The notes under the pieces: generated by a model
The model's input: only the letters and a program-made list of their open reading frames with translations
The model's database searches: none
What the model was told of the DNA's origin: nothing
Translations under genes and position numbers: made by a program
NCBI GenBank assembly: GCA_964505155.1
Contig: CAZDGL010000005.1
Span: forward strand, 1 to 59,311
DNA length: 59,311 bases
Reading direction: 5' to 3'
From: an uncultured Candidatus Saccharibacteria bacterium
GTDB lineage: Bacteria; Patescibacteriota; Minisyncoccia; Phycocordibacterales; UBA9973
Part shown: positions 11,726 to 49,196 of the stretch, piece by piece
Layout of the letters: each line of letters begins with the position of its first letter
Numbering within the stretch: the stretch's first letter is position 1

Positions 11726-12697
11726 TTAGAAAATGCTCTTTATTTTATTCCAAATCTTTCCTATCAGAGACTTGTGTTCTCTTTTACAACCCTTCACACA
11801 ATGAGTATGACCTCTCTTTTCTGTCTGCTTTTTCTCACAAGCATCACAAAGTATGAACTGTCCATTGCAACCAAACTCTCTGCAGTCAACAATGTTTTCT
11901 GATGGAGCATCGCAAGAGGTACACTTACCTATGATTTTGTGTTTTGGATCATCAGTATAGAATCCCATCGCTACTCTCCCATCAAAGACATAGAGCTTGC
12001 CTTCGAAATCTTCATTCGGATATTTCTCCATGTATGAGACGATACCGCCATCGAGTTGATACACATCTTTGAAACCTTGGGTGATAAGATAGCCTGATGC
12101 TTTTTCACAACGCACACCACCAGTACATACAGTAAGAACTGTTTTGTCTTTCAGATGCGCTATAGTTTTCAAAAGTTTTGGAAGATCACGGAAATTTTCC
12201 ATGGGAGGGCATATTGATCCGGCAAACTTTCCAATCATATGCTCATAAGCATTGCGCATGTCGACTATGTAGAACTCACGCCCTTCTGCAATCCATTGAT
12301 GAAGTTCTTCTGGTTTTAGGTGTATACCAGTAGTAACATTTGGATCAACATCGCAAGTGCCAAGGTGAAGAGAAACTATTTCTGGACGTACCTTTACTGA
12401 GAGCTTTGGGAAAGCATTGCCTGTTCCCTCACTACGCTTCATATGAATATTTAGAAAACGAGAGTCCTTCTCCATTTCTTTGATAAAATCCTCTGTATCT
12501 TGTGTCTTGCCTTCAAGAGTAATATTTAGCCCTTCTGTTGCAACAATCAGTCGTCCTTTCAGTCCAAACTTTTGGCATAGTTCACGAAGCCAATCCCTAA
12601 CCTCTTCTGGGTTTGAGATGTGGACGTATTTGTAGAAAAGTAGAATTTGATAATCTTTCATATTTTTTAGATTAGCAGAAAAATTGGGATTGGTCAC
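11726..12697 (-). CDS. trhO: Rhodanese-domain tRNA uridine(34) hydroxylase, TrhO/YceA family
   Basis: [56 protein letters not shown]. Confidence 0.88.
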
Positions 12698-12702
12698 GGT
12701 AT

Positions 12703-12902
12703 TATCGGGACCGCTACGCTTATCTCCCTCGACTCAAAGCTTTTCAGTCAAAAGCTTTGGTCTGGGCACCAGCTCAGCCATTTTGTCTGATGACAAAATA
12801 TGCTTCCGCTGTTCGATTCCCGAACGCGAGACAAGCAGTTGTCTCGCTTAGTCCCCCAATATAAAAAACCTGGAATTCCAGGTTTTTTATATTGGGGGAC
12901 TA
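12703..12902 (-). mobile_element. tRNA-associated hairpin-rich element, copy at tRNA-His (includes a 54-bp perfect palindrome at 12849-12902)
   Basis: Core aligns with 22417-22522 in reverse complement; ends match the tRNA-His 3' end. Confidence 0.8.
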
Positions 12903-12967
12903 TCGGGAATCGAACCCGAATCGAAGGTTCCACAAACCTCAGTGTTAACCGTTACACCATAATCCCC
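12895..12967 (-). tRNA. tRNA-His (GUG)
   Basis: Cloverleaf with G-1:C73, anticodon arm GAGGT-TTGTGGA-ACCTT, T-loop GGTTCGATTCC. Confidence 0.95.
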
Positions 12968-13036
12968 ATGCTTGCCCCGCGAAACCTTAGTGAAGTGGGG
13001 TGTGCACCTTGTTATACCAGAAAATCTTTATGAAAT

Positions 13037-14026
13037 CTAGAGCACAGAGCTCTCTGTTTCAGAATTAAACTTTTTTGTAACTACTCTTTCAAAAATTTGT
13101 GAACCAATGATAACAAAGGCTAGGAGGGTTAGATAAGCCCAAAGAGATGTTTGGAAATCAAGATTTATCTTGCGAAGCGAGCCAAGCAAAAATGCCAAAT
13201 ACCAAGAAGTAAGCGACACACCTCCGAGAGCAAAAGCGAGTCTTCGGAAACGGCGCGCCGGCACAGTTCCTTCAAAAGAGAGCCGGCGCATATACGGAGC
13301 GACAAACATATTTAAAAGTATGCCGTTTATTATAATAACGCCAACCACAAAGACTTTGAGTAAGAACTTTGCTGAAGCCAAAAGTCTAGCTTGCTCTGGT
13401 ACAAAAAGAGCAAAGCCTGTGACAACTAGTATAGCTAGTGCTATCCAGATGACATTGGTAAGAGTATCCATAGTTTGCTTTTCTTCCAAAGAGATAACTT
13501 TGTCTTTCAAAAATCTAAAGAAAAATATATCAGTAATAGTCGCAGACCCTACTCCGAGGATAAATCCAAGGTTGTGCAATATCACCCAAAAGACTTTTTG
13601 TTTTGCCAAGATTGGTGCAAAGATCTCTGTAGGGATACTTATAAGGCTGATGATGAGAAGGATGTTGGTAAAAGCTATTGCCAAACACCATGCGCACCAA
13701 CTCTTGATAACGAAGGCTTGAAGCCCCAAAAGGTAGAGAGAAAATAGTCCACCTAAAATCATAAGGAAAAACATGGCATATAAAACCATTGAAGGAGCGA
13801 ACCCGAGTAGAGGGAGAAAGATTAGGACGAGCATAAAGCCAAAATAAACTATTCCCAAAAGTTCGTTCGGCAAACCAAAGGTCTTGGCAAACTTGCTATG
13901 AAGTACAGTATCGCAAGGATGCTCCCTTGGACAAGCAAGTTTTTTGTGAGAAATTTTTCTAAAGAGCATAAAAGCCGAGAGAAAAATCCCGACAAGAGAC
14001 AGGGCTATAGGTATAAAAGTTTGCAT
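13037..14026 (-). CDS. Vitamin K epoxide reductase (VKOR) family protein fused to an extra multi-TM domain
   Basis: LAC.....CDTVL.S loop cysteines, FGLPNELLG, CAWC redox motif; extra hydrophobic C-terminal half. Confidence 0.88.
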   Translation of the reverse strand: MQTFIPIALSLVGIFLSAFMLFRKISHKKLACPREHPCDTVLHSKFAKTFGLPNELLGIVYFGFMLVLIFLPLLGFAPSMVLYAMFFLMILGGLFSLYLLGLQAFVIKSWCAWCLAIAFTNILLIISLISIPTEIFAPILAKQKVFWVILHNLGFILGVGSATITDIFFFRFLKDKVISLEEKQTMDTLTNVIWIALAILVVTGFALFVPEQARLLASAKFLLKVFVVGVIIINGILLNMFVAPYMRRLSFEGTVPARRFRRLAFALGGVSLTSWYLAFLLGSLRKINLDFQTSLWAYLTLLAFVIIGSQIFERVVTKKFNSETESSVL

Positions 14027-14051
14027 GGAAATATTATAACAGAATCTCTTG

Positions 14052-14373
14052 GTGACTGAGAGGGCTTTCCTTCGCCTATCGCTTTTAAAAACTTGGTTAC
14101 TCGGTTACAAAGACTTGTAGTTACGCTGCTATTCCACAAAGAACGGTACAAACTTGGATAGAAAATGACGAGACTCTTCGCTTGAAAATCAACTCTTGGC
14201 AAAATGAGATCAATCGCATAGCGAGACAAAATTTAATAAAGGTTATTAAAAGTGGTAAACCAGAAGCCTACCAAGTCTCTTTATTTTGGCTTAAGACACG
14301 TGAAAGAGAAGATTTTGGATATACCACTCTTACAGCGAAATATAATTGCCTTCCAAGACAAGTAAGAACGTGA
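14052..14373 (+). pseudogene. Degraded phage-like HTH / terminase small subunit-like gene
   Basis: Frame of ORF 14182 stays open upstream to 14089 (KLGYSVTKTCSYAAIPQRTVQTWIEND...ARQNL...FWLKTREREDFG) with no ATG and is cut by TAA at 14086. Confidence 0.5.
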
Positions 14374-14447
14374 GGCTGACAAGATAGAGGCAGAGAGAAA
14401 TAGAATTTATAAAAAAGAGTTATACGATATCATAAAAAGGCAAGGCT

Positions 14448-15161
14448 CTATTTAAAACTAAGCGGGTTAAAGTTGGTCCCAACGTCAAAAGTATCTAAAC
14501 CTTCTTTTGCTTTTAAAGTTCTTATTACTTTACGAGTTATCGGTAACGCTAATACCTCCCAAGTTGTACAGAAAATCACGGTACTAATGATCAGTGGGAT
14601 CACTTGCTCAGCGGTAAACCAGCCAGCAAATAAAAATATACCAGTAATAGCGATGGAGTTATCAACTATTTGACCAAAAAGTGTAGATAGAACGAGTCTA
14701 AAATTTAGATATTTTCCAGTCGTAAATATTTTCATTTTTGCTACCACAAAAGAATTGGTTAACTCACCACAGAAAAATGCAAGTATTACAAAGAAAGCAA
14801 CAAGTGGAGATGACTGGAAAATCAAATTGTATGCTTGGCTATCAGCAAAGTTTGGGCTTGGCACAAGAGTATAAACATAGGCTATTATTGAAGATAAAGC
14901 CATGCAAAAGAAGCCGGTCCAAACAATCTTTCTCGTTACCCTATATCCGTACACTTCAGTAAAAATATCAGCAAAAATGTAAACAAATGGATAGGTCAAT
15001 ATTACGACTGCAAAAACAAAGCCACCAATTTCAAAAGTTTTTAGTGCTGTAAAAAGATTGATTATTAGAAAAGTCACCCATAACATACCCAATATGCCTA
15101 GATACTTATGATTAGCACGTGCAGACAATTTTGGATCAGTAATAAGTTGTGTATTTTGCAT
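14448..15161 (-). CDS. Queuosine precursor transporter (VUT/YhhQ family)
   Basis: YPFVYIFADIFTEVYG, GELTNSFVVAKMK, RLVLSTLFGQIVD, DTFDVGTNFNP. Confidence 0.92.
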   Translation of the reverse strand: MQNTQLITDPKLSARANHKYLGILGMLWVTFLIINLFTALKTFEIGGFVFAVVILTYPFVYIFADIFTEVYGYRVTRKIVWTGFFCMALSSIIAYVYTLVPSPNFADSQAYNLIFQSSPLVAFFVILAFFCGELTNSFVVAKMKIFTTGKYLNFRLVLSTLFGQIVDNSIAITGIFLFAGWFTAEQVIPLIISTVIFCTTWEVLALPITRKVIRTLKAKEGLDTFDVGTNFNPLSFK

Positions 15162-15284
15162 ATACTCAATTATACCTTTTTCACAAAAAACATAACACTT
15201 TGTACACCAGTTTCTCCAAAAAACGTAGTAACTGCAAGACTACAACCGTTGTTTGAAACTTTTCACTGGAAAAGTCTTTACTAG

Positions 15285-15368
15285 TGCGCGAGAGAGGACT
15301 TGAACCTCCATCCCATTGCTGGGGCTACCACCTCAAGGTAGTGCGTCTACCAGTTTCGCCACCCGCGC
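15285..15368 (-). tRNA. tRNA-Leu (GAG)
   Basis: GCGCGGGTGGCGAAACTGGTAGACGC; anticodon arm CTACC-TTGAGGT-GGTAG; long variable arm. Confidence 0.95.
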
Positions 15369-15421
15369 AAATATGTTTTTTAAAGCACGTAGCAACTATA
15401 AACAAAATTTTCTGTATAAGC

Positions 15422-15449
15422 AAGAAAATCCGCATTGGCGGATTTTCTT
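15422..15449. terminator. Hairpin after rplS
   Basis: AAGAAAATCCGC-ATTG-GCGGATTTTCTT. Confidence 0.7.
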
Positions 15450-15454
15450 TTGTA

Positions 15455-15880
15455 TTATTCGTTTGAACTTTCTTCTTGTGTCTCCTCTTCTACTTGAGCT
15501 TTTCCTGTTAGGATTTGCTTCATTTTGCGTCTTATCTCTTTTACCGCTTTGTCTCTGATGTAGTAGAGCTTACTTCGGCGAGTTTTTGTTTTCTTTGTGA
15601 CTTCAATCTTATCGATCATTGGAGAAAATAGAGGAAAAACACGCTCTACTCCTACGCCATTACTTACCTTACGCACAGTGAAAGTTGCAGTTGGACTAGT
15701 GCCGTGTTTACGCGCCAAAACAATACCTTCAAAGGCCTGGAGACGGTATTTACCTTTATCTTCAATCTTTGACCAAACGCGAATATTGTCTCCTGAAGAG
15801 AAATCAAGCTTTTTTCTTGCTTCTACATCAACTGGAGTAAATGAGAATACTTCTTGTGTGGCTGTTGTTGCTTCTTCCAT
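15455..15880 (-). CDS. rplS: 50S ribosomal protein L19
   Basis: GDNIRVW, RLQAFEGIVLA, TFTVRKVSNGVGVERVFP, RRSKLYYIRD; ATG at 15880. Confidence 0.97.
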   Translation of the reverse strand: MEEATTATQEVFSFTPVDVEARKKLDFSSGDNIRVWSKIEDKGKYRLQAFEGIVLARKHGTSPTATFTVRKVSNGVGVERVFPLFSPMIDKIEVTKKTKTRRSKLYYIRDKAVKEIRRKMKQILTGKAQVEEETQEESSNE

Positions 15881-15896
15881 ATAGGACGAAACTTTA

Positions 15897-16628
15897 TCAT
15901 AAAATGCCGTACTTCGCAACTGCCCTGGCAAAATCAGACGGATATGGAGCTACAGCTTCTACCTTGTGCCCTTCTAGGTCCAAAAAGCTTATTTTCCTAG
16001 CATGAAGAGCTACCCTTGAAAAACCAAGTGCGTCTTGCTTACTGGGCGCATAAAGACTGTCAGAAACTATCGGTCTTTGGATAAATTTCATATGAACACG
16101 CAATTGGTGTGTTCGGCCAGTTTTGGGAAAAAGCCTAACAAAAGAAAACTTTTGATCATTTTCGTCTACAAACTCGCTTTCTACTTGCCACTTTGTGATG
16201 GCCTCTTTGGTTTCACCTCGCAAACCTCGTCCAGCATGTCTGCGACGAAAATCGTTTTTGTTGCGCCCGATAGGTTCGTTAATGATCCCCTCTTTTTCTT
16301 TAAAATGATCCCAGAGAAATGCGTGGTATTCCTTTTCTATGATTCTATCCATAAATTGCTTTTTAAAATGAGCAAAAGCTTCTTTGGTCTTGGTGACGAT
16401 CAAAACCCCAGAAGTCTCTTCGTCGAGTCTATGAACTATACCAGGGCGATCTATCTCTTCATCATTAAAAGTAACACTTTCTCCTACTCCTTTCATTTCT
16501 GGATACTTTGAAATAATCCAATCTGTAAGAGTCGGGACATCTTTTTTGCCATCTGGATGAACCATTAAGCCAGAGGGTTTGTTGAGGACCAAAAAGTCTT
16601 TTGTTTCGAGCAATACTACAGGCTCCAT
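15897..16628 (-). CDS. RluA-family RNA pseudouridine synthase
   Basis: NKPSGLMVH, PGIVHRLDEETSG, PKTGRTHQLRVH, ALHA. Confidence 0.95.
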   Translation of the reverse strand: MEPVVLLETKDFLVLNKPSGLMVHPDGKKDVPTLTDWIISKYPEMKGVGESVTFNDEEIDRPGIVHRLDEETSGVLIVTKTKEAFAHFKKQFMDRIIEKEYHAFLWDHFKEKEGIINEPIGRNKNDFRRRHAGRGLRGETKEAITKWQVESEFVDENDQKFSFVRLFPKTGRTHQLRVHMKFIQRPIVSDSLYAPSKQDALGFSRVALHARKISFLDLEGHKVEAVAPYPSDFARAVAKYGIL

Positions 16629-16642
16629 AATAAAAACATACT

Positions 16643-16678
16643 AACATAAAAACACCAATTGCTTGGTGTTTTTATGTT
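16643..16678. terminator. 14-bp-arm hairpin downstream of tRNA-Val with an AATTGCTT loop
   Basis: AACATAAAAACACC-AATTGCTT-GGTGTTTTTATGTT. Confidence 0.7.
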
Positions 16679-16681
16679 TTG

Positions 16682-16753
16682 TGCGCCCTGAGGGATTTGA
16701 ACCCCCGACCTTCGCTGTGTAAAAGCGCTGCTCTACCACTGAGCTAAGAGCGC
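16682..16753 (-). tRNA. tRNA-Val (UAC)
   Basis: GCGCTCTTAGCTCAGTGGTAGAGC; loop TTTACAC; GGTTCAAATCC. Confidence 0.95.
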
Positions 16754-16836
16754 ATAAAGCACTAAGGAGAGCATAACAAAAAATAGACATTTTGCAAATT
16801 TGAAGTATTAATATAAGATAAAAATACTTAGACATT

Positions 16837-16908
16837 GCCCTTGTAGTTAAATGGATATAACTGCGGACTTCTAAGCCGTTATTCTAGGTTCGATTCCTAG
16901 CGAGGGCA
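16837..16908 (+). tRNA. tRNA-Arg (UCU)
   Basis: GCCCTTGTAGTTAAATGGATATAAC; loop CTTCTAA; GGTTCGATTCC. Confidence 0.95.
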
Positions 16909-16918
16909 CAAATTTAAA

Positions 16919-17185
16919 CTATTTTGTTCTTGTATTTATAGCTCCTTCTATAGAGTCTATGAGCTTTTCTAGTTTATTTATTTGAAGACTATTTGTGTCT
17001 AGTTTTGGAACAACCTGCTCATCTAGCTTTTTGGTTGAAACAGTAAAAAAGTAGGTAAAATATACAATCTCTAGGGTCAAAATGATTATAAAAATAGTTA
17101 TCAAAATAAGCCAAAAACGATGAGGGTTTATTGTGCCATCTTTTTTATATCTTATTGATTTTTGTTTTTTGAAATTTATTTTCAT
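16919..17185 (-). CDS. Small single-TM protein at the end of the pilMNO-like operon
   Basis: One TM helix plus a coiled tail; co-oriented with the pilM operon. Confidence 0.7.
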   Translation of the reverse strand: MKINFKKQKSIRYKKDGTINPHRFWLILITIFIIILTLEIVYFTYFFTVSTKKLDEQVVPKLDTNSLQINKLEKLIDSIEGAINTRTK

Positions 17186-17188
17186 ATA

Positions 17189-17776
17189 TTATTCGACACT
17201 CAATATCTCAATTGTAACAACCGCCTGCCATTTTGGCTCTTTGGGTGGCTGGGTGGTTTTTTTGACAGAAGAGGGTGCTTTAAAATCCTGAGAGTCACCA
17301 GAGCTAGTTTGCTCAGAAAATAAATAGATATTTTTTATATTCACCAAAAAGCTTTGGTGTCTTAATAAGTCTAAAAAGGTTAAAATTTCTTTGTAGGTAG
17401 CAATAGATTTTGTCTCAACAACAAGTTTGGCAACTTCTTCATCCTTTATATTTTGAACACTTGTAATCTCAAAAGAGATATTGTTTTGTTGGGCCAAAGT
17501 CTCTAGGCTAGATAAAAGCTCAGGAACTGATTCTTGTTTGATAATGTTTTTCTGAAGACTAGCTACTCTGGATTCTAAATCTTTGATCTTTTGAGCCTCT
17601 TCGTTAAAAGCTTTTTTGTTTATTTGATAAGAAACCAACCTCTCCTTTAATCCCAATACACTGTTTGTTTTTTTGTTTATTTTTGAAAGAGTAATAACAA
17701 TAATAAAAATTATAACTAGACACAAGATTATCGAGATAAATATGGCTACAATATGTTTTGCAAATGTCTTTTTCAT
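17189..17776 (-). CDS. PilO-like type IV pilus assembly protein
   Basis: N-terminal TM, coiled coil, PELLSSLETLAQQNNI, ferredoxin-like C-terminus; third gene after pilM. Confidence 0.65.
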   Translation of the reverse strand: MKKTFAKHIVAIFISIILCLVIIFIIVITLSKINKKTNSVLGLKERLVSYQINKKAFNEEAQKIKDLESRVASLQKNIIKQESVPELLSSLETLAQQNNISFEITSVQNIKDEEVAKLVVETKSIATYKEILTFLDLLRHQSFLVNIKNIYLFSEQTSSGDSQDFKAPSSVKKTTQPPKEPKWQAVVTIEILSVE

Positions 17777-17780
17777 ATAT

Positions 17781-18302
17781 TTATTTTATCGATATTATAA
17801 GCTTAAAAGTTCCATTTTTACTCTTGATAAAGTTTGAAACAGGGCTATCTACCATTGAGAACTCAGGCTGACTAGTTAGTGTAGCTATAAAACTCTTCAG
17901 AGACTCCCTTTTATCAAAAGATCCAAAAACCTCTAGTATTTTTGGGTCTTCAGAAGAAAATCTTTCTATTTTTATACCAAAAGGTGTTTGTTTCTCTACT
18001 AAAGAAATAGTGTCTATGATAGAGGCATCATTTTGTGCTACTAAAAGAGGTTTTATTTTTTGTGCTTTTTCATACAAAAAAACAAGGTTAATATCGCTTG
18101 ATATCATTCCTTTTTTTTCTAAAGAGATTATTTCTTCCGAATAAATGTTAAAACGAGAATTTACAGTAAAAACTGTGGGTAGTATAAGTAGGAGCAGAGA
18201 AGTTATTAAAAAGAACACTGCACCGATAATAGAGTTCAACACTCTTAAAAGTCGAATCTTACCTATGATCTTTTTTTCTTTGTATGGCAAAAGGTTAATC
18301 AT
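17781..18302 (-). CDS. PilN-like type IV pilus assembly protein
   Basis: Hallmark MINLLP start plus TM, directly after pilM. Confidence 0.8.
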   Translation of the reverse strand: MINLLPYKEKKIIGKIRLLRVLNSIIGAVFFLITSLLLLILPTVFTVNSRFNIYSEEIISLEKKGMISSDINLVFLYEKAQKIKPLLVAQNDASIIDTISLVEKQTPFGIKIERFSSEDPKILEVFGSFDKRESLKSFIATLTSQPEFSMVDSPVSNFIKSKNGTFKLIISIK

Positions 18303-19368
18303 ATATATAATCAGCTAAAGCAAGACCTATGGCCGTAACATAGCTCATAGAGGCTTCTTTGTTTATCTCTGGGATAAAGTTTTCTGTCGAGAAACAGTTT
18401 TTCCACGGGTTTACTTGTACTACTTTTAACTTAAGAGCACTGCTTAGATAATCGTCTAGCCCCAAAAGGTTGCTATGTCCCCCGCAGAGATAGATAGTGT
18501 CTATTGTTGGGAAGGTTCCGAGTTGATTTTTCTTTTCATACCAATAAGTATAACGGCGATTGATTTCGTCTTTTAGTACAGAGATACTGTTTACCAAAAC
18601 AGAAAAAGTATCTTTATCAGAATTGTTTTTTATCAAGCCATTTTCTCTTTTTATTTTTTCTGCTTCTTCTATAGAAATAGAAAACTCCTTGGCAAGGTTT
18701 TGGGTCAACAACTTACCACCAAAGTCGAGTGTGGCAGTAATCATAGCTGTTTTGTTGGTAACGATAGTGATACCAGTTCTGTTGGCTCCAAAATCAACAA
18801 TCATACAAGATCCTTTATCACTTGGATCAAGAACCGCTCTTGCTATAGCTTGACCCTCCAGCTCAAAACTTACAGGTATTATATCTGCTGAAAAAAAGGC
18901 GTTAAAATAGTTGGTTGTTACAGTTTCAGAGAGAGCCACAACTTGCACTATTATCCCAGACTCACTTACACCCAAAACATGGTAGTCAAATACAGTCTCT
19001 ATAGCCTTTAGAGGGATATTGTCTTCTATCAAAAGCTCGATAGCTGAACGAATATCTCCGCTAGCGCTCGGATCCAGAGATAAGGTGAAAGAATAAACCT
19101 GAGACTCTGGAATAGAAACTCGAACGTATTTGAGTTTGTATTTTTTTTGGACTTCTTTTAGAAAAGAAATAAACTTTTCATTATCAACTATTCTACCTCC
19201 TTTCATACAACCTTCTGGGATGCTCATCTCAGCAAATCTCTTGGGCACCAAACCGTCCACTGTGATACCAAGAGCAACAAAACGCATAGTAGCGTCAGAA
19301 AAATCCAAGCCTACTGTTGGAATAGCAACAAATGATGGTGTTGGAAATAATCTATTAAAAAGATTCAT
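18295..19368 (-). CDS. pilM: Type IV pilus assembly protein PilM
   Basis: VGLDFSD, MIVDFGA..T, IYLCGG.SNL.GL..YL, NPW, AIGLAL actin-like motifs. Confidence 0.9.
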   Translation of the reverse strand: MNLFNRLFPTPSFVAIPTVGLDFSDATMRFVALGITVDGLVPKRFAEMSIPEGCMKGGRIVDNEKFISFLKEVQKKYKLKYVRVSIPESQVYSFTLSLDPSASGDIRSAIELLIEDNIPLKAIETVFDYHVLGVSESGIIVQVVALSETVTTNYFNAFFSADIIPVSFELEGQAIARAVLDPSDKGSCMIVDFGANRTGITIVTNKTAMITATLDFGGKLLTQNLAKEFSISIEEAEKIKRENGLIKNNSDKDTFSVLVNSISVLKDEINRRYTYWYEKKNQLGTFPTIDTIYLCGGHSNLLGLDDYLSSALKLKVVQVNPWKNCFSTENFIPEINKEASMSYVTAIGLALADYIYD

Positions 19369-19477
19369 CCCGCTTAGAAACAGGTCGCGGTCACCGCAGA
19401 CACTGTTAAGTTTATTTGTTTAATACTTTTTTCAACCATTTTTTTAATTCCCTCCGCGATCGCGGTTTCTAACGGGA
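19369..19477 (-). mobile_element. 109-bp MITE, copy 1, flanked by a duplicated ATGAA (pilM start codon)
   Basis: TIRs TCCCGTTAGAAAC / GTTTCTAAGCGGG; homologous to 42355-42464. Confidence 0.85.
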
Positions 19478-19515
19478 TTCATCCTAAATATTATACGAGA
19501 TTGTGAGAGATATTA

Positions 19516-19848
19516 CTATCTAACTTTTGCGCCCGGTGCAACTGCTTTTTCTGGAACCAAAAAAACTGGCTCACCATCTAGTCCGTCCACTGCCATAAGC
19601 ATACCTTGAGACTCTAGTCCCATCATCTCTCTTGGTGCTAGATTGATTACAAAAAGCATTTTTTTTCCCACCAAAGTACTTGGTTCATACCAAGCCTTGA
19701 TGCCCGAGAGTATTTGCCTAGGCTTTTCTTCTCCAAAATCAAGCATAAGCTTGATGAGCTTGTCTGATCCTGGTACCTCTTCAGCAGAAATAACCTCTCC
19801 GATACGGGCTTCTAGTTTTTTAAATTCGTCTATTGTTAAATATTCCAT
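19516..19848 (-). CDS. Stand-alone tRNA-binding OB-fold protein (Trbp111/CsaA/MetRS C-terminal-like)
   Basis: TIDEFKKLEARIGEV, SDKLIKL..DFG, RQILSGI, NLAPR.MMGLESQGML. Confidence 0.9.
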   Translation of the reverse strand: MEYLTIDEFKKLEARIGEVISAEEVPGSDKLIKLMLDFGEEKPRQILSGIKAWYEPSTLVGKKMLFVINLAPREMMGLESQGMLMAVDGLDGEPVFLVPEKAVAPGAKVR

Positions 19849-19883
19849 CCTATTATTCTACTTTATAAAAAATAAAATAAAAA

Positions 19884-19909
19884 CTGCTCCCGTTTATTGG
19901 CGGGAGCAG
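19884..19909 (-). terminator. Intrinsic terminator
   Basis: CTGCTCCCG-N8-CGGGAGCAG followed by a long U-tract on the minus strand. Confidence 0.8.
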
Positions 19910-20150
19910 AGTTAGTTTGTTGCGATTAAGAATTATACAAAGAACTAAAAGAAATAAAAGGTTTCTTAATCAGGAGGCCAGTTTACAACAAACAGCTAAA
20001 GCAATAAGGGCGTGTCTGGATGATTTCCTCAGCCACCATAGCTAAGTTACACCTACAAGCTCGTGCCTTTTGCGTAATCGCCTATTTACTATTTTCCAAC
20101 AGTTTAGACGCGAAACTTTGAATGAAAGGCCATTCAAAAATCATCTTATA

Positions 20151-20531
20151 CTATTTCCTATTTTTATCAAGAAATCTCTGAAGTATTATTGCGGCGGCAC
20201 TATCATCCCTATCCCCTCTGTCTGTTTGATATCTATGTGCCTCTACTGAAGAAAATCCTTCTCTTTCAAAAAAGACCTCTAAACAGGTTTGTTCTTTGAG
20301 TTTTTCAGCAAAAGCTTTTGAGGCTTCTAAGATAATATTGCTCTCCCCACTATTTGCCAGCGACTCTCCTATGACAATAGCACTGATGTTTTCTTCTTTA
20401 GCTAAAACCTTAATGAAATCTAAGGCTTCCCCTAAAGGAACTATTTTTTTTGGAAAGGCAAAAGAAGCTTCTTCATCAGAAATAGCAATCCCTACCTTTT
20501 TTGTTCCAAAATCTACCCCTAGATATCTCAT
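20151..20531 (-). CDS. ruvX: YqgF/RuvX family nuclease
   Basis: MRYLGVDFGTKKVGIAISD, DDSAAAIILQRFLD; ATG at 20531. Confidence 0.93.
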   Translation of the reverse strand: MRYLGVDFGTKKVGIAISDEEASFAFPKKIVPLGEALDFIKVLAKEENISAIVIGESLANSGESNIILEASKAFAEKLKEQTCLEVFFEREGFSSVEAHRYQTDRGDRDDSAAAIILQRFLDKNRK

Positions 20532-20608
20532 AGAGATTAGATTATCACAAAGATTGAAAAAAAGCGCTTGTTGTGGTAAATTCATGCTGTTCCAACAAAC
20601 ACATACAC

Positions 20609-20693
20609 GGAGGTGTCGCATAGTGGTTTAGTGCACCTGTCTTGAAAACAGGAGTACCGCAAGGTACCGGGAGTTCGAATCCCCCCACCTCCG
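20609..20693 (+). tRNA. tRNA-Ser (UGA)
   Basis: GGAGGTG acceptor; CCTGT-CTTGAAA-ACAGG; long variable arm GTACCGCAAGGTAC. Confidence 0.96.
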
Positions 20694-20754
20694 CTAGTAA
20701 TTTTATAAATTAAACAAAAAATTGTTTAGGTGCTAAAAAGAAATTCAGACTTAT

Positions 20755-21360
20755 ATGATTTTATTAAAAGGATTATTACTTGGATTTCTAATCGCTGCTC
20801 CTATTGGTCCAATCGGGGTTCTTTGTATTCAGCGTACTTTAAATAAGGGAAGGTTTTCAGGTTTTGTATCTGGTTTGGGTGCCGCAACCGCAGATGCATT
20901 TTACGGAGCAGTAGCTGCTTTTGGATTATCTATAATTTCTAATTTTCTTATTGAGCAACAACTTATTCTTCGCCTCGTTGGTGGAGCATTTTTGTTATAT
21001 TTTGGCGTTAAATCTTTTTACTCAAAAACAAAAGAGTTTAATATAAACATGAATACTAACACAAAATTAGCTAGTGATTATCTTTCTACTGTTTTTCTAA
21101 CAATGACAAATCCTATGACTATTATTTCTTTTATTGCCGTGTTTACAGGAACTGGCTTTTTAACAGGGAGCCTTAGATCAGCATCTCTTTTGGTGGTCGG
21201 AGTCTTTTTAGGCTCAGCTCTATGGTGGCTAACTTTAAGTTTAGGTGTTGGATGGATCAAATCAAAAATAAATAATTTCTCTCTAAATACATTAAATAAG
21301 GTTTCGGGAATAGTTATTATTATCTTTGCTTTGTTAATTTTATTTGAGATATTCAAATAA
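20755..21360 (+). CDS. LysE family translocator
   Basis: APIGPIGVLCIQRTL, GLGAATADAFY, TMTNPMTIISF. Confidence 0.92.
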   Translation: MILLKGLLLGFLIAAPIGPIGVLCIQRTLNKGRFSGFVSGLGAATADAFYGAVAAFGLSIISNFLIEQQLILRLVGGAFLLYFGVKSFYSKTKEFNINMNTNTKLASDYLSTVFLTMTNPMTIISFIAVFTGTGFLTGSLRSASLLVVGVFLGSALWWLTLSLGVGWIKSKINNFSLNTLNKVSGIVIIIFALLILFEIFK

Positions 21361-21444
21361 TCATACATAAACCTTCAGATAAATTCGACCAATTATAATT
21401 AACTTTGCTATACTAAAACCATAATAATAATTAATTTTGTATTT

Positions 21445-21756
21445 ATGAATCAGAAATTGAAGGGTTTTATGGATTTTATTAGAGAACAAGGCGTAGTCGG
21501 GCTTGCTGTTGGTTTCATCCTTGGAGGTGCAGTTGCCAAGATAGTTTCTTCTTTGGTAGAGAACGTCATCAACCCTCTAGTGGGCCTTGCTCTTGGCAAG
21601 GTTGATCTCGCTGACAAAGCTGTAACTATGGGTGGCACAACACTTAAGTATGGCGCCTTTATCTCTACTCTTGTGGACTTTGTAATCATCGCAGCTGTTG
21701 TTTATTTTGGGGTCAAAGCTCTCGGACTAGACAAGCTTGATAAAAAATCAGAATAA
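21445..21756 (+). CDS. mscL: Large-conductance mechanosensitive channel
   Basis: GFMDFIREQGVVGLAVGFILGGA..KIVSSLV..VINP, YGAFIS..VDF. Confidence 0.93.
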   Translation: MNQKLKGFMDFIREQGVVGLAVGFILGGAVAKIVSSLVENVINPLVGLALGKVDLADKAVTMGGTTLKYGAFISTLVDFVIIAAVVYFGVKALGLDKLDKKSE

Positions 21757-21764
21757 CTTTTGAT

Positions 21765-21793
21765 AAAAGCCTCGCGTCAAATGCGAGGCTTTT
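21765..21793 (+). terminator. Terminator after mscL
   Basis: AAAAGCCTCGC-N7-GCGAGGCTTTT. Confidence 0.75.
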
Positions 21794-21809
21794 ATGTTAC
21801 AATTTAAAA

Positions 21810-22265
21810 ATGAAACCAGTATCTTGGAAAACGCTAGAATTTCAAAAAAAGAACAGGCATCCTGATTGGGTTTGGGGAGTAGGACTCATATCTGCCCTAT
21901 CTGCTATAGTCTCGTTTTTCTATGGCAACATTTTCTTTGGTATTTTTCTAATAGTTGCAGGTGTAGTGACTATTATCTATGCCTTCAAAGATCCAAAAGA
22001 GTTAGAAATAACTATCTCCGAAAAAGGCATCTCTATCAATGGTGAAGACATAGAATACAAAAACATAAATGCTTTTTGGCTTGACGAAACTGGGAAAGAA
22101 GCTAAGCTATTACTGCTCGTCAAAGGATCTTTTCTCCCAACTCTTTCCTTTCCTCTCTTTGGGGTCAGTGCTACTGAGGTTCGGGAAGCTTTGGCGCCAA
22201 ATGTAAAAGAGCAAGAAATGCGTGAATCAAGGAGCATAGCACTGTTTGACCGCCTCGGATTCTAA
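21810..22265 (+). CDS. Hypothetical 2-TM membrane protein with a PH-like soluble domain
   Basis: W..LEF, two TM helices, ITISEKGISING..I.Y; TACAAT 6 nt before the ATG. Confidence 0.8.
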   Translation: MKPVSWKTLEFQKKNRHPDWVWGVGLISALSAIVSFFYGNIFFGIFLIVAGVVTIIYAFKDPKELEITISEKGISINGEDIEYKNINAFWLDETGKEAKLLLLVKGSFLPTLSFPLFGVSATEVREALAPNVKEQEMRESRSIALFDRLGF

Positions 22266-22270
22266 ATATT

Positions 22271-22342
22271 CCTCTCGTCGTTCAATGGATAGGACGCAAC
22301 TTTGCGGAAGTTGTGATGTAGGTTCGATTCCTACCGAGAGGA
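22271..22342 (+). tRNA. tRNA-Arg (GCG)
   Basis: CCTCTCG/CGAGAGG acceptor; CAACT-TTGCGGA-AGTTG; GGTTCGATTCC. Confidence 0.93.
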
Positions 22343-22536
22343 CAATGTAAATGGCCCCCACTTGGGGGCTTTTTACATTGTCCTCGAGAATGAGCAAACT
22401 GCTTTGCTCATGTGTAGGAATCGAACGACGGAGTCATATTTTCTCATCAGAGAAAATAGACGAGTCGGTGCCCAGACCTTTTGCGAGAGCAAAAGAGTCG
22501 AGGGAGATAAACGAAGTGGTCCTACCGAGAGGACAA
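22343..22536 (+). mobile_element. tRNA-associated hairpin-rich element, copy at tRNA-Arg(GCG)
   Basis: Core shared with the His copy; inverted copy of the tRNA 3' end, and a 17-bp direct repeat TCCTACCGAGAGGACAA (22329-22345 = 22520-22536). Confidence 0.85.
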
Positions 22537-26438: not shown

Positions 26439-26511
26439 GCGCTTATAGCTCAGCTGGTAGAGCAGCTCCCTTTTAAGGAGACGGTCGCAGGTTCGAATCC
26501 TGCTAAGCGCA
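26439..26511 (+). tRNA. tRNA-Lys (UUU)
   Basis: GCGCTTATAGCTCAGCTGGTAGAGC; loop CTTTTAA; GGTTCGAATCC. Confidence 0.96.
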
Positions 26512-26708
26512 CAAAATACAAAAGACACCAACTGCTTGGTGTCTTTTGTATTTTGTGCGAGCCGGAACGATGCTTTTGTTTTTGCGAAGCAAAAGGCAAA
26601 AGCCGTGAGGCGGGGTCGCAAGTACTTATGAGCCTGAGTTTATCGAAGGCGAATTAGTAACTTGTGACCTAATCCTGCCTTTACTTGTGACCACAAGGGG
26701 CGCTTAGC
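26508..26708 (+). mobile_element. tRNA-associated hairpin array, divergent relative of the His/Arg elements
   Basis: 22-bp-arm palindrome 26508-26559 with an AACTGCTT loop; distal AATCCTGC repeat of the T-arm and GCGCTTAGC inverted acceptor. Confidence 0.55.
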
Positions 26709-46521: not shown

Positions 46522-47619
46522 CTATCTATTTGTTGGCATTAATAAGTAAATAAAACTATTGTCGTTTATACCTTTTATAATGATGGGTTTGTTTGGTGCT
46601 GTAAAAGAAATACTTATACTATCAGAAGATATGGTTTGAAAAACATCCAAGAAATACTTTAAGTTGAAAGAAACTTCTATATCGGCACCTTCTAGAACAG
46701 CTTCTATGGAAGAGGTTGATGAGCCTACGTCGTTGTTTTTTGATTGAATAATAATTGATTTTGTGGACTTAGATACATTAAAGATTATTTGAAAAAATTT
46801 ATCTGCAAATACTGTTGATAATCTAAGTGTTGATAATAATTCATTTCTCATTAGAACAACCTTTGTTTTCTCTTCTTTTGGTATTATAAGTCTATAATCA
46901 GGAAATGCTCCATCTATAAGTCTTGAAGTGAAATAAATACCATCACCTGAAATAGAAATTTGGTTTTTACTAAAAGAAACAAATACTTCTCCTTGGAGTA
47001 GATCTAAAACCCTTAAAAAATCAGCTATGTTTTTATAAGGGATCAATATTTTAGAAACTTCTGGTATACCTTTTATTTTTATTTTCTTTTCTGAAAGTCT
47101 AAAAGAATCAGTAGCAACAAAAACTAAATTTTCCTGTTCTGTATATATAAAAATACTTGATATCTCTGGTTTTATCTCTGTTGTAGCACAACAAAAATAA
47201 ACACTTCTTATACCTTCTTGCATAAGCTCACTTTTTATTTTAAATGTCTCACCTTCAACACTAGGAAGTGTAGGAAAATCTTCTTGTGGTAGACATTTGA
47301 TAACAGTTTTTGATGTTTCGCTTTCTATCAACAAATTCTCACCCTCGAGAGATAGGTTTATCTCTATTGAATTTGACATATTTGAGACAACATTAGATAA
47401 AATATCCCCTTTTATCAAAACTATTCCTTCTTTGGAAATATTGGCCTGTACTTCTATTTCAACACCTACAGTTAGGTTTGTTGCTCTTATTTTTAAAGAA
47501 TTTCCTGAGGCGACAAGAAGTATTGCTTGGAGCGTAGGAAGGGCCAAGTTTTTTCCCGACATTTTTTCAGCTAAAGTAACCGCTCTTTTTAATTTTTCTG
47601 TTTTACACTTTATTTTCAT
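46522..47619 (-). CDS. dnaN: DNA polymerase III beta clamp
   Basis: ATNL..G, EDFP.LP, VATDSFRL, LIDGAFPDY, FNLKYFLD, LLMP. Confidence 0.97.
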   Translation of the reverse strand: MKIKCKTEKLKRAVTLAEKMSGKNLALPTLQAILLVASGNSLKIRATNLTVGVEIEVQANISKEGIVLIKGDILSNVVSNMSNSIEINLSLEGENLLIESETSKTVIKCLPQEDFPTLPSVEGETFKIKSELMQEGIRSVYFCCATTEIKPEISSIFIYTEQENLVFVATDSFRLSEKKIKIKGIPEVSKILIPYKNIADFLRVLDLLQGEVFVSFSKNQISISGDGIYFTSRLIDGAFPDYRLIIPKEEKTKVVLMRNELLSTLRLSTVFADKFFQIIFNVSKSTKSIIIQSKNNDVGSSTSSIEAVLEGADIEVSFNLKYFLDVFQTISSDSISISFTAPNKPIIIKGINDNSFIYLLMPTNR

Positions 47620-47806
47620 ATTTTATAAAGAATAGTCTAATAAGTTTATAATAGGTGTGGATTGTTAAAAACTATTTTTTATCTTTATGTATTAAGGATA
47701 AAAATAAAACCCTCAGTGTTGATAATTTGTTTATTGATTTTGTTGATATATTTCATATATAAAACTTTTTGATATTTATTAGATTATTTTCACACCTTAT
47801 TAACAT
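47620..47806. promoter_or_regulatory. Putative oriC segment between dnaA and dnaN
   Basis: Very AT-rich; degenerate DnaA boxes TGTGGATTG 47656, TGTTGATAA 47717, TGTTGATAT 47741, TTATTAACA 47797. Confidence 0.6.
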
Positions 47807-49156
47807 CTATTTAAACAAAATTCTAATATCTTCTAGTTCTTTCATTAATTCAGAATCATTTTTCAATTCTTGTTTTATTTTTTCATATGAGTGTATGACA
47901 GTTGTATGGTCTTTTCCACCTAACTTAGAACCTATAGATGGATAAGACTCATTAAAATCCTCTCTCAATATAAACATAATCATTTGTCTAGCTTTTACTA
48001 TCTCTTTTCTTCTTGTTTTTTCATAAACAACACCTTCGTCTAGGTTGTAGTAATCAGATATTTGTTTCACTACACTCTCAAAAGAAACAACCTTTTTTGG
48101 TTTAACACTATTTCTAACCAAAAGCTTAACCTCAGATAAAGATATTGGTTTTTGCTTCATTTCAGAATGCATATTTATAAGGTTGATTATACCCTCGAGC
48201 TCCCTTATACTCCCTGTCACTGAAGATGCTATATAAGAGAGAACTTCAGATTCTATAATGTTTCCAGACAACTGAACTTTTTCTTTTATAATAGCCATTC
48301 TACTCTCAAGATCTGGTTCCTGGATATCTATTGTCATACCAGCATTAAAACGAGTTTTTAACCTATCCTCTAGTCCAATAATGTGGTTAGGGTGTTTATC
48401 AGAAGAAAAGATAATACTTTTTTCTTGCTCGTATAAAAGGTTAAATAAATGAAATAATTCACTTTGAGTACCATCTTTACCAGAGATAAACTGAATATCG
48501 TCAATAATTAAAACATCAAGTTTTCTATATTTTTCCCTAAAAGGAACCCCTCTACTGTTTTGAACAGATGTAACATAATCGTTCAAAAACCTTTCAAGTG
48601 TTGTATAGAGAACCTTTTTTTCAGGAAAGTTCTTTTTTATTTCATTTCCTATGGCTTGTATAAGGTGTGTTTTTCCTAAACCACTTGATCCGTATATAAA
48701 AAGAGGGTTGTAGACTCTACCTGGCTTTTTGATAACAGCCTGAGATGCTGCATAAGCTAGTTCATTGAAAGGCCCAACAATAAAAGTATCAAAAGTATAC
48801 CTTGGATTTAGGTTATCATCTCTGTTGGTATAAATATCAGATATAGGGAGCTCCGGTTTTCTTTGGTGATCAGTAGTGTTTTCTATTTTATTTTCATTTT
48901 GAGTTATTTTACTTATTATAAACTCAACTCCCCTTATATGGTCTGCGTGAGTAACTAAGTTTTTTAAGACCATCTTTTGGTATTTTGTTACCATCCACTC
49001 TTTTATAAAATCATTCGGTACACCTATAAAAACAATACCCTCCTCTTCTTTTATTGCTTTTGTATTTTTAAACCAAGTATTGAAATGGCCAGTAGAAACC
49101 TCTTTTTGGATCTCAAGTAAACATTTATCCCAAAGTGTAGATGTGTCCATTGTCAT
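47807..49156 (-). CDS. dnaA: Chromosomal replication initiator DnaA
   Basis: LNPRYTFDTF, NPLFIYGSSGLGKTHL, LIIDDIQF, RELEG, KDHTTVIH; start at ATG 49156 or 49150. Confidence 0.98.
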   Translation of the reverse strand: MTMDTSTLWDKCLLEIQKEVSTGHFNTWFKNTKAIKEEEGIVFIGVPNDFIKEWMVTKYQKMVLKNLVTHADHIRGVEFIISKITQNENKIENTTDHQRKPELPISDIYTNRDDNLNPRYTFDTFIVGPFNELAYAASQAVIKKPGRVYNPLFIYGSSGLGKTHLIQAIGNEIKKNFPEKKVLYTTLERFLNDYVTSVQNSRGVPFREKYRKLDVLIIDDIQFISGKDGTQSELFHLFNLLYEQEKSIIFSSDKHPNHIIGLEDRLKTRFNAGMTIDIQEPDLESRMAIIKEKVQLSGNIIESEVLSYIASSVTGSIRELEGIINLINMHSEMKQKPISLSEVKLLVRNSVKPKKVVSFESVVKQISDYYNLDEGVVYEKTRRKEIVKARQMIMFILREDFNESYPSIGSKLGGKDHTTVIHSYEKIKQELKNDSELMKELEDIRILFK

Positions 49157-49196
49157 ATAGTAGTAATAATACGTCTTTATTGGTTTAATCAAAAAC

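Follow-up and report, generated by a model that had tools for sequence, protein, structure and literature searches.

Non-coding cassettes with antisense and sense copies of the adjacent tRNA 3′ half in Patescibacteria

Cassettes behind tRNA-His and tRNA-Arg

We analyzed a stretch of 59,311 nt (the window; contig CAZDGL010000005.1 of assembly GCA_964505155.1) from an uncultured Candidatus Saccharibacteria bacterium, in which short cassettes follow the genes for tRNA-His(GTG) and tRNA-Arg(GCG). Each cassette repeats the 3′ half of its tRNA, once in antisense and once in sense, around a structured core. An earlier note on this DNA, made from the sequence alone, had proposed a single family with a shared core and tRNA-specific ends. 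The same arrangement, each time with arms that correspond to the local tRNA, was found at over 100 independent tRNA loci, which places the sense–antisense–sense pattern far beyond chance. The cassettes represent a large, uncatalogued superfamily of non-coding elements of about 150–200 nt that lie 3′ of tRNA and tmRNA genes in Patescibacteria.

We use S for the tRNA 3′ half (positions 54–76), the segment copied by the cassette, and assign each cassette to the strand of its tRNA. In this direction, S leads into a short trailer, a GC hairpin flanked by an A-tract (5′) and a T-tract (3′), the mirrored trailer, an antisense acceptor copy (S′Acc), an inserted hairpin (Hx), an antisense T-arm copy (S′T), the core and a distal copy of S. 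S′Acc is the complement of the final 8–12 nt of the tRNA and runs on into the complement of the trailer. In most members of the family, Hx measures 25 nt; its stem varies, and its loop is usually AACUGCUU. S′T is the complement of positions 54–65 and always stops at position 54. The core of about 95 nt leads through GGGA, then GA plus the base of position 59, and an optional insert (none, 2 nt or a mini-hairpin) to positions 60–76 and approximately 3 further nt. Both window copies (His and Arg) carry the mini-hairpin form of this insert.

The tRNA-His(GTG) gene lies at 12894–12966 on the minus strand (ARAGORN; Rfam tRNA model, 60.1 bits), and all parts of its cassette are on the same strand. 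Trailer, terminator hairpin (stem CCTGG/CCAGG; A-tract 5′, T-tract 3′) and mirrored trailer, recognized from the sequence and by a palindrome test, occupy 12858–12893. S′Acc (GGGGGACTA, 12849–12857) is the exact complement of the final 9 nt of the tRNA. Hx (12825–12848), a hairpin of GCGAGAC, the loop AACTGCTT and GTCTCGC, is inserted at the junction of acceptor and T-stem, and S′T (TCGGGAATCGAA, 12812–12823) complements the T-loop and the 3′ strand of the T-stem (positions 54–65). The core (12723–12811) belongs to the type called A below; it is matched by our covariance model R1 with 115.9 bits (E = 3.8e-31) and supported by covariation. Its order is helix P1, a GGA/GA internal loop, P1b, hairpin P2, GUG, helix P4 (CCC.GAC / GUC..GGG) around hairpin P3, and a terminal GGGAGA. 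The distal end (12698–12722) consists of a T copied from T-loop position 59, the mini-hairpin AAGCGTAGCGG, the sense copy TCCCGATA and ATACC, a decayed form of the acceptor part. A related metagenome contig (L118; L numbers denote the related loci) has the distal copy in the same decayed state.

The tRNA-Arg(GCG) gene (22271–22343, plus strand; ARAGORN and Rfam), with S at 22323–22345, is followed on the plus strand by trailer, terminator hairpin (GGCCCCCA/TGGGGGC with a T-tract) and mirrored trailer at 22346–22377; this hairpin is terminator-like on both strands. S′Acc (TTGTCCTC, 22378–22385) is the complement of GAGGACAA, that is, of tRNA positions 69–73 plus the trailer sequence CAA. Hx (22390–22413) is composed of ATGAGCA, AACTGCTT and TGCTCAT, followed by GT, and S′T (GTAGGAATCGAA, 22414–22425) is again the complement of positions 54–65. 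The type A core (22426–22507; R1 score 105 bits, E = 4.9e-28) is bounded by a distal end (22508–22536) with a T copied from T-loop position 59, the mini-hairpin AAACGAAGTGG and the 17-nt sense copy TCCTACCGAGAGGACAA.

The individual observations of the earlier note on these two copies could all be reproduced. The cores are identical at 41 of 52 nt after GGAATCGAAC, and GAGTCGAGGGAGATAA occurs exactly twice in the window, compared with a chance expectation of 0.25 even if three mismatches are allowed. The 13-nt antisense copies of the T-arm are specific to each tRNA (TCGGGAATCGAAC for His, GTAGGAATCGAAC for Arg), the loop of the inserted hairpin is the same in both cassettes, and the distal sense copies extend over 17 nt in Arg and over 8 nt in His, there followed by the degenerate ATACC. 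A compensatory swap of G/C to C/G (ATTTTGTC..GACAAAAT versus ATTTTCTC..GAGAAAAT) was found as well. Moreover, one palindrome extends in both copies from the tRNA 3′ end through the terminator into the antisense acceptor copy; it is perfect over 54 nt in His (12849–12902) and symmetric at 42 of 48 positions in Arg.

A family of structured cores with tRNA-specific arms

A pattern scan of species-representative genomes, built from two invariant blocks, yielded at least 117 loci. About ten of these were chance matches in GC-rich genomes from outside the Candidate Phyla Radiation (CPR), and the remainder came from Patescibacteria. The hosts are Saccharibacteria, Paceibacteria (such as Nomura-, Kaiser-, Yonath- and Zambryskibacteria), Moraniibacteriota and Minisyncoccia; IMG/VR viral contigs and INPHARED phage genomes gave no cassette matches.

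The earlier note had suggested a covariance-model search. We built model R1 from 98 cores and searched 100 loci (708 kb) with a threshold of E ≤ 0.001, identifying 130 copies. A same-strand tRNA ends at most 130 nt upstream of 86 of them; 20 tRNA identities are represented, including one stop-anticodon call. Another eight follow apparent tmRNA genes (L016 and L110) or tRNA genes with a group I intron that ARAGORN had overlooked in tRNA calling; seven of these eight upstream genes were confirmed by ARAGORN or Rfam, and the eighth, an apparent intron-containing tRNA gene in L094, is recognizable by sequence similarity only. Eleven copies are second units of tandem or composite arrays, eleven lie too near the edge of the locus to be judged, and 14 have no recognizable tRNA upstream. 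The tmRNA genes followed by cassettes are located at L016 4141–4703 and L110 3886–4458, and the antisense arm in L016 includes the complement of the encoded CCA of the tmRNA.

Group I introns (Rfam, 59–88 bits) that interrupt CPR tRNA genes followed by cassettes, the tRNAs missed by ARAGORN, were located at L007 7319–7578, L022 4346–4591, L039 2169–2401, L042 4516–4765 and L104 1905–2156. Upstream of cassettes in two Saccharibacteria metagenome-assembled genomes (MAGs; L050 and L080), ARAGORN called a “tRNA-Stop” with the anticodon UUA, which may be a miscall or a stop-codon reassignment. An apparent head-to-head pair of cassettes in L049 (2504–2950) was discarded as an assembly artefact, the contig being a perfect palindrome centered on the terminator hairpin.

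Type A is not the only core. Of the tRNAs in the CPR loci, 169 had sufficient downstream sequence; the exact type A pattern follows 77 of them, and a further 21 precede other cores enclosed by inverted and direct tRNA copies of 9 nt or more. Variants are also present behind several tRNAs initially scored as partial. In this sample, roughly half or more of the tRNAs carry a cassette, fractions that are biased upward since loci were selected for the presence of at least one. Variants of type A covary in P4 (GCCUAGAG..CUCGAAGG). Type D (GGGGUCGCG...CGUGACC; about 29 examples) has the P1–P2 domain in common with type A, types B and C contain ..GUAC..CUGUAAG.., and a type E was also distinguished. 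Hence, at least four further core types share the architecture of the cassette.

The core is a real structure, strongly supported by covariation. RNAalifold predicted 27 pairs on a MAFFT alignment, 21 of them with double compensatory changes. In the model-based alignment, all 27 core pairs changed on both sides, and 95.7% of the cells can pair, compared with 65.7% after shuffling and at most 47% with slid partners. The fold is a junction of three elements: a clamp helix, formed by S′T and the distal T-stem copy; P1, the GGA/GA loop, P1b and P2; and P4 (CCC.GAC / GUC..GGG) with P3. The P2 loop is AGCA and the P3 loop GACG, often with tandem G–A pairs; AGCA, GACG and CUGC are conserved loops, and the junction nucleotides are invariant across CPR classes.

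Read on the tRNA-sense strand, G–U pairs outnumber A–C (58 versus 18) and G–A outnumber C–U (77 versus 13), and type D keeps a G–U at a fixed place. These biases identify the tRNA-sense strand as the folding strand, and they rule out a gene on the antisense strand for a tRNA-minihelix RNA convergent with the tRNA. We also rejected a hammerhead reading of the antisense-strand CTGATGA, which is a hairpin loop and not conserved, and a kissing interaction between the Hx loop and the P2 loop, which showed no covariation (p = 0.41). Independently of the cassettes, a canonical type III hammerhead ribozyme (CUGAUGAG...GAAAC) was noticed at L009 591–644 (plus strand) in a Saccharibacteria contig; it scores 42 bits, slightly below the Rfam gathering score, and adjoins no tRNA.

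The arms follow the local tRNA closely. The distal 13-mer matches its own tRNA at 11.6 of 13 positions on average and tRNAs with another anticodon at 5.7 of 13, and is perfect in 41 of 72 loci; this comparison excludes that the arms are fixed sequences merely coinciding with conserved tRNA parts. The distal sense copy, reaching from the T-loop to the discriminator plus 1–3 nt, is at least 11/13 identical at 54 of the 72 loci, and the direct repeat spans 15–20 nt, sometimes more than 27 nt. S′T follows even unusual T-loops (TCCGA, TTCAAAT and TGCAAAT). At 12 loci, S′Acc complements the tRNA end perfectly although the distal copy has lost its acceptor part to decay. No antisense copy without a core was found among the 169 tRNAs.

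Because S′Acc is continuous with the complement of the trailer, the copy must have been taken from DNA or from the primary transcript and not from a CCA-tailed tRNA. Templating from the mature tRNA was also rejected on the basis of CCA, which occurs seven times in distal copies and five times in the genes, without correlation. The tRNA genes of these genomes have no encoded CCA and mostly show CAA after the discriminator. The earlier note had further proposed that insertion itself templates the ends from the target. On this point the tracking is equivocal, as tRNA-specific lineages whose cores are homogenized by gene conversion could also produce it. In the one clearly recent move, that of a type D cassette between tRNA-Lys and tRNA-Leu, only the 5-nt arm GTGCG was carried, which fits both tRNAs.

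No described family that we tested accounts for these sequences. The earlier note had counted a match to a known Rfam family as evidence against its proposal, and no Rfam match overlaps the cassettes: at gathering and permissive thresholds, Rfam 15 returned for the window and 33 related loci only tRNA, tmRNA and group I intron matches and one sub-threshold hammerhead, none of them inside cassettes, and tRNAs alone reached the gathering score. At E ≤ 10, nothing credible overlapped the His and Arg cassettes, and at E ≤ 0.5 nothing credible lay over the cassettes in loci with core types B–D. ARAGORN and the Rfam tRNA and tmRNA models called the upstream genes and no cassette on either strand, and our literature searches found no description of the element.

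Turnover at orthologous tRNA sites

We compared the window with a syntenic Nomurabacteria MAG (L010/L031; 70–80% nucleotide identity) and with the metagenome contig L118 (95–97% identity). At orthologous sites, cassettes have appeared, been exchanged for others, doubled in tandem or decayed. The site between tRNA-His and trhO is empty in L121 and L134, where the ATG of trhO lies 3 and 2 nt past the tRNA, respectively. In the window, it holds the type A cassette and, between this and the trhO start codon (12661), an older remnant (12683–12697, minus strand; GTGACC AATCCCAAT) that resembles a type D 3′ end. In L118, whose flanks are 95–97% identical to those of the window, the site has a different type A variant and the same decayed distal copy; compared with the window, the terminator stem differs and all core helices are rewritten with compensation, whereas the segment from S′Acc to Hx is identical. 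In L010, a type D cassette lies next to the tRNA and a type A 3′ remnant beyond it, and L133 retains a decayed remnant only.

Three side observations concern this site. The tRNA-His and trhO-like genes, nearly abutting in L121 (707–712) and L134 (1813–1825), are probably co-transcribed there. In the window, where the cassette puts a terminator between the two genes, the old remnant GTGACC..TAATCT (within 12661–12697, minus strand) might serve as a replacement promoter. In L119 (716–1479), a contig 96–97% identical to the window, no cassette is present, and tRNA-His together with about 75 nt upstream of it is inverted; a 5′-truncated trhO is preceded by 600 nt of novel sequence that include an open reading frame (ORF).

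A third cassette, not listed in the earlier note, was recognized from the sequence after tRNA-Lys (26439–26512) at 26513–26679 on the plus strand. It comprises a palindromic terminator and the loop AACTGCTT (26513–26554), an S′Acc of only 5 nt (GTGCG, 26555–26559), a type D core (26560–26669) with a P1–P2 domain like that of type A followed by GGGGUCGC..GUAACUUGUGACC, and a partial distal sense copy (TAATCCTGCC, 26670–26679). Beyond this, within 26513–26691, lies a second CTTGTGACC remnant. Model R1 matches the P1–P2 domain of this core with E = 0.17.

At tRNA-Leu(GAG) (15284–15368 in the window), L010 has a type A variant and L118 a type D cassette that is 89% identical to the tRNA-Lys cassette of the window. 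In the window itself, a 1.2-kb foreign insert separates the tRNA from a remnant at 14051–14076 (minus strand), which consists of the decayed 3′ end of a type A variant (GGCGAAGGAAAG) and a decayed copy of the tRNA-Leu 3′ half; the intact ortholog of this cassette is the one in L010. The insert (within 14051–15283, minus strand) carries a gene for a Vut_1-family transporter (14448–15161) and, on the plus strand at about 14100–14380, an unannotated ORF remnant without a PHROGs match. The tRNA-Arg(GCG) cassette is kept in an ortholog with approximately 75% identical flanks, its stems rewritten yet paired.

Truncated second units (S, terminator, S′Acc and half of Hx) follow cassettes in L113, L117, L109 and L023. 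Cores at different tRNAs within one locus have an identity of 0.70 (maximum 0.89; p = 0.004), compared with a background of 0.61 and with 0.65 where the loci differ and the anticodon is shared; the similarity within a locus ends exactly at the tRNA-specific arms. Cassette-free tRNAs (window 16641–16680, minus strand, and related loci) have long, near-perfect palindromic terminators of A-tract, hairpin and T-tract that start about 3 nt past the discriminator; their loops, such as AAGCAATT, resemble Hx loops. Empty and occupied orthologous sites, core swaps between genomes of 95–97% identity, tandem copies and decayed remnants all bear out the behavior of non-autonomous inserted DNA, one of the two options named in the earlier note.

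The genes around the cassettes offer no partner. Forty ORFs of the window are housekeeping genes (for NusG, PheRS, RuvABC, PolA, DnaA/DnaN, pilus proteins and others), and those beside the cassettes encode a rhodanese/TrhO-like protein, a pilin-like protein (on the other strand) and a SpoU methylase. The earlier note had reported no transposase in the window; we found no transposase, integrase, other recombinase or reverse transcriptase among these 40 ORFs or as a recurrent neighbor in 105 loci, and no autonomous parent with a transposase in the window or in 8-kb flanks. ORF clustering over the 105 loci gave no family present in more than 11, and the best cluster (11/105) reflects synteny only. 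No sigma-70-like promoter was predicted for the cassettes on either strand, and a simple terminator scan called the Arg hairpin on both strands and did not call the His hairpin. The genes dnaN and dnaA are on the minus strand at 46522–49192, and GC skew is negative throughout the window with no switch there. The skew thus carries no origin signal in the window and offers only a weak argument on cassette orientation.

Possible origins and relation to known systems

We tentatively favor the reading that the cassette is a non-autonomous integrative element with an RNA-like fold that is directed at the tRNA 3′ end. In tRNA-like genes, insertion would be aimed at the segment between T-loop and 3′ end, and the direct repeat would consist of the regenerated target and the displaced fragment, as left by tRNA-targeting integrases. 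In a single-stranded form of tRNA sense, RNA or DNA, the inverted copy could fold the tRNA segment into a duplex clamp beside the core, to be recognized by machinery acting in trans or paired with the target at insertion. Heteroduplex correction against the selected tRNA might then keep the arms local, and gene conversion might keep the cores alike within a genome. A more specific version seems doubtful to us at present: retargetable, nucleic-acid-guided integrative elements, in which the tRNA-sense single strand (RNA or DNA) would fold both copies into a clamp adjacent to a core that is catalytic or recruits proteins. The clamp would invade the tRNA gene between T-loop and 3′ end, or mimic this segment, and the arms would be rewritten from the target on insertion. 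Under that version, one core could colonize any tRNA or tmRNA gene without an enzyme of its own.

Several points weigh against an integrative element. We observed no recombinase, no circular form and no junction of an empty site with a fresh insertion; the cassette is not the sole difference between empty and occupied His sites, as older remnants lie in the interval. The 20 tRNA identities cannot easily be served by a single integrase, and a cassette supplying its own S would yield a dead chimeric tRNA at a new target. The replaced cassettes in near-identical genomes are mosaics and look like homologous exchange rather than clean insertion. The core invariant across Saccharibacteria and Paceibacteria, together with the retained Arg cassette, fits a host-useful RNA as well. 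Given the upstream terminator and the lack of a predicted sigma-70-like promoter, transcription of the cassettes is only putative.

The main rival to the integrative cassette is such a host-useful RNA, a non-coding RNA family tied to tRNA genes, whose 5′ arm is antisense to the 3′ half of the neighboring tRNA and whose 3′ arm masks it. It could act on the tRNA or pre-tRNA by sequestration, RNase III targeting or sensing of 3′ fragments, or mimic the tRNA top half for a tRNA-binding factor. The RNA-like fold, with its multi-helix junction, tandem G–A pairs, conserved G–U and loops AGCA, GACG and CUGC, speaks for this, as do the junction nucleotides kept across CPR classes and the rewritten yet paired stems of the Arg cassette at about 75% flank identity. 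Orientation, too, follows the tRNA (His minus, Arg and Lys plus) and not the replication direction to which GC skew weakly points, and the tRNA-proximal copy stays intact while displaced copies decay. However, individual tRNAs have no cassette (four of seven in the window, and those at the empty His sites), core types replace one another at the same site, and 12 loci show a distal arm with a decayed acceptor part. A terminator lies upstream and no promoter was found, and function alone cannot give 20 tRNA identities their 20-nt arms, so that templated copying would still be required. On balance we consider this explanation possible but unlikely. The related idea of the earlier note, a switch in the pre-tRNA 3′ trailer in which the antisense segment of one read-through transcript pairs with either the tRNA 3′ half or the distal decoy, is improbable. 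The order of the copies does permit two exclusive pairings, and the His palindrome is perfect. Yet a GC hairpin with a T-tract stands between the tRNA and the antisense arm, and most transcripts should therefore terminate ahead of the switch; the scan called this hairpin as a terminator only in the Arg copy, there on both strands. In addition, many type D copies have an antisense arm of only 5 nt and no antisense T-arm, the decoy has decayed in 12 loci where the palindrome persists, and some copies have no recognizable upstream tRNA.

Two further explanations treat the cassettes as by-products. They could be scars of integrase islands or prophages at tRNA genes, with attL and attR remaining after deletion of the cargo. 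A direct repeat starting in the T-loop, the targeting of both tRNA and tmRNA genes (PMC4383910) and the 1.2-kb foreign insert at tRNA-Leu of the window would agree with this, but more than 100 independent deletions could not leave a covarying 95-nt core with identical boundaries. The inverted copy is not a feature of att sites, no integrase remnant lies nearby, and the searched viral contigs and phage genomes contain no match. We therefore regard island scars as quite improbable. As the earlier note had argued, simple att duplication by an integrase does not explain the inverted copy; the integrase model alone also leaves the conserved core and the 20 tRNA identities unexplained. Least credible of all is template switching during replication at palindromic terminators, in which the strand folds back and returns via the T-loop sequence TTCGAA, generating a product with neither function nor mobility. 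In its favor, empty tRNAs also have long palindromic terminators almost touching the tRNA end, TTCGAA is self-complementary, and a double switch yields a sense–antisense–sense triplication. This process does not produce a conserved core, however, and the antisense arm ends at position 54 even with non-palindromic T-loops (TGCAAAT, TTCAAAT). Nor was a coreless structure of S, terminator and antisense copy seen among the 169 tRNAs.

Coming back to the favored integrative element, we compared the cassettes with known systems. In the T-loop class of tRNA-targeting tyrosine integrases, the T-loop serves as the crossover segment; the cassettes have their boundary at position 54, where the 7-nt T-loop begins. 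The use of tRNA and tmRNA genes as targets, regeneration of the target and displacement of a 3′ fragment are hallmarks of tDNA islands (PMC4383910). Like the cassettes, these islands and prophages (tyrosine integrases; Islander, PMC4383910) leave an intact gene and a displaced copy from the T-loop to the 3′ end at the far end, and repeated use of a site gives tandem and decayed units. Unlike them, the cassettes are approximately 170–190 nt long and non-coding, lack an integrase and kilobase-sized cargo, possess an inverted tRNA copy and a covarying core, and occupy about 20 tRNA identities within one family. Miniature inverted-repeat transposable elements are likewise short, non-coding and multi-copy, with insertion polymorphism, inverted-repeat ends and no enzyme gene. 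In the cassettes, though, the inverted repeats differ from copy to copy according to the local tRNA, and there are no family-wide terminal inverted repeats and no short duplication of fixed length; the target class and orientation are single, the covariation is strand-specific and RNA-like, and no autonomous parent was found in the window or in the 8-kb flanks.

Folded-strand recombination provides another parallel. In integron attC sites and in the attP(+) site of CTX phage, which is used by XerCD, one strand folds so that the inverted repeat rebuilds a duplex site; recognition is strand-specific and involves side branches, and the enzyme acts in trans. The cassettes share the strand-specific fold and the inverted repeat. 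They differ in showing no attC-like R/L boxes by eye and no dif-like sequence, in the far more elaborate three-way-junction core with 27 covarying pairs and in the lack of a nearby recombinase gene. The primer-binding site of retroviruses and long terminal repeat (LTR) retrotransposons is an 18–23-nt antisense copy of a tRNA 3′ end that in retroviruses is re-copied in each cycle and tracks the tRNA used; the antisense segment of the cassettes, by contrast, continues into the trailer complement (CAA...) and not into CCA, lies beside the tRNA gene and is accompanied by neither a reverse transcriptase nor an LTR. Class C group II introns are structured RNAs of 600 nt or more that insert just past intrinsic terminators in a specific orientation. 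The position after a terminator is alike, but the cassettes match no group II model, measure about 190 nt and have no intron-encoded protein.

Among RNAs, tmRNA and the tRNA-like RNAs (viral tRNA-like structures, YrlA and mascRNA) similarly join a 12-bp stack of acceptor and T-stem to a foreign domain; in the cassettes, the 5′ strand perfectly complements the 3′ strand, the core replaces the T-loop, and the discriminator and trailer are paired. Retron msr-msd elements have comparable inverted arms, whereas no reverse transcriptase adjoins the cassettes in the window or recurs as a neighbor. For the bridge RNA of IS110 and the omega RNA of IS200/IS605, neither such a recombinase nor a TnpB or IscB gene lies beside the copies examined, and there is no Rfam match. 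A T-box riboswitch is contradicted by the lack of an Rfam T-box match and by downstream genes that are unrelated or convergent (trhO-like; pilin-like on the opposite strand). Hence, the cassettes do not agree fully with the defining features of any known family tested, and they are distinguished by the sense–antisense–sense copy of the target around interchangeable structured cores. To our knowledge, such a copy of the target 3′ half has no precedent.

If the cassettes are mobile, their targeting of tRNA genes together with their target-copying arms would amount to site choice by base pairing without an element-encoded enzyme, possibly a new principle of recombination or guiding. If they are host RNAs, a large share of the tRNA genes in these CPR genomes would have a private antisense or mimic RNA. 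The cassettes bring the tRNA terminator along; at the tRNA-His site, as far as can be read from the sequence, this would leave trhO outside the tRNA transcript. Recombination and strain turnover can readily be followed with the cassettes as markers, and the at least five new structured core types, each with many sequences, can be used for covariance models and biochemistry. Either way, the cassettes constitute a major unannotated feature of the streamlined CPR genomes.

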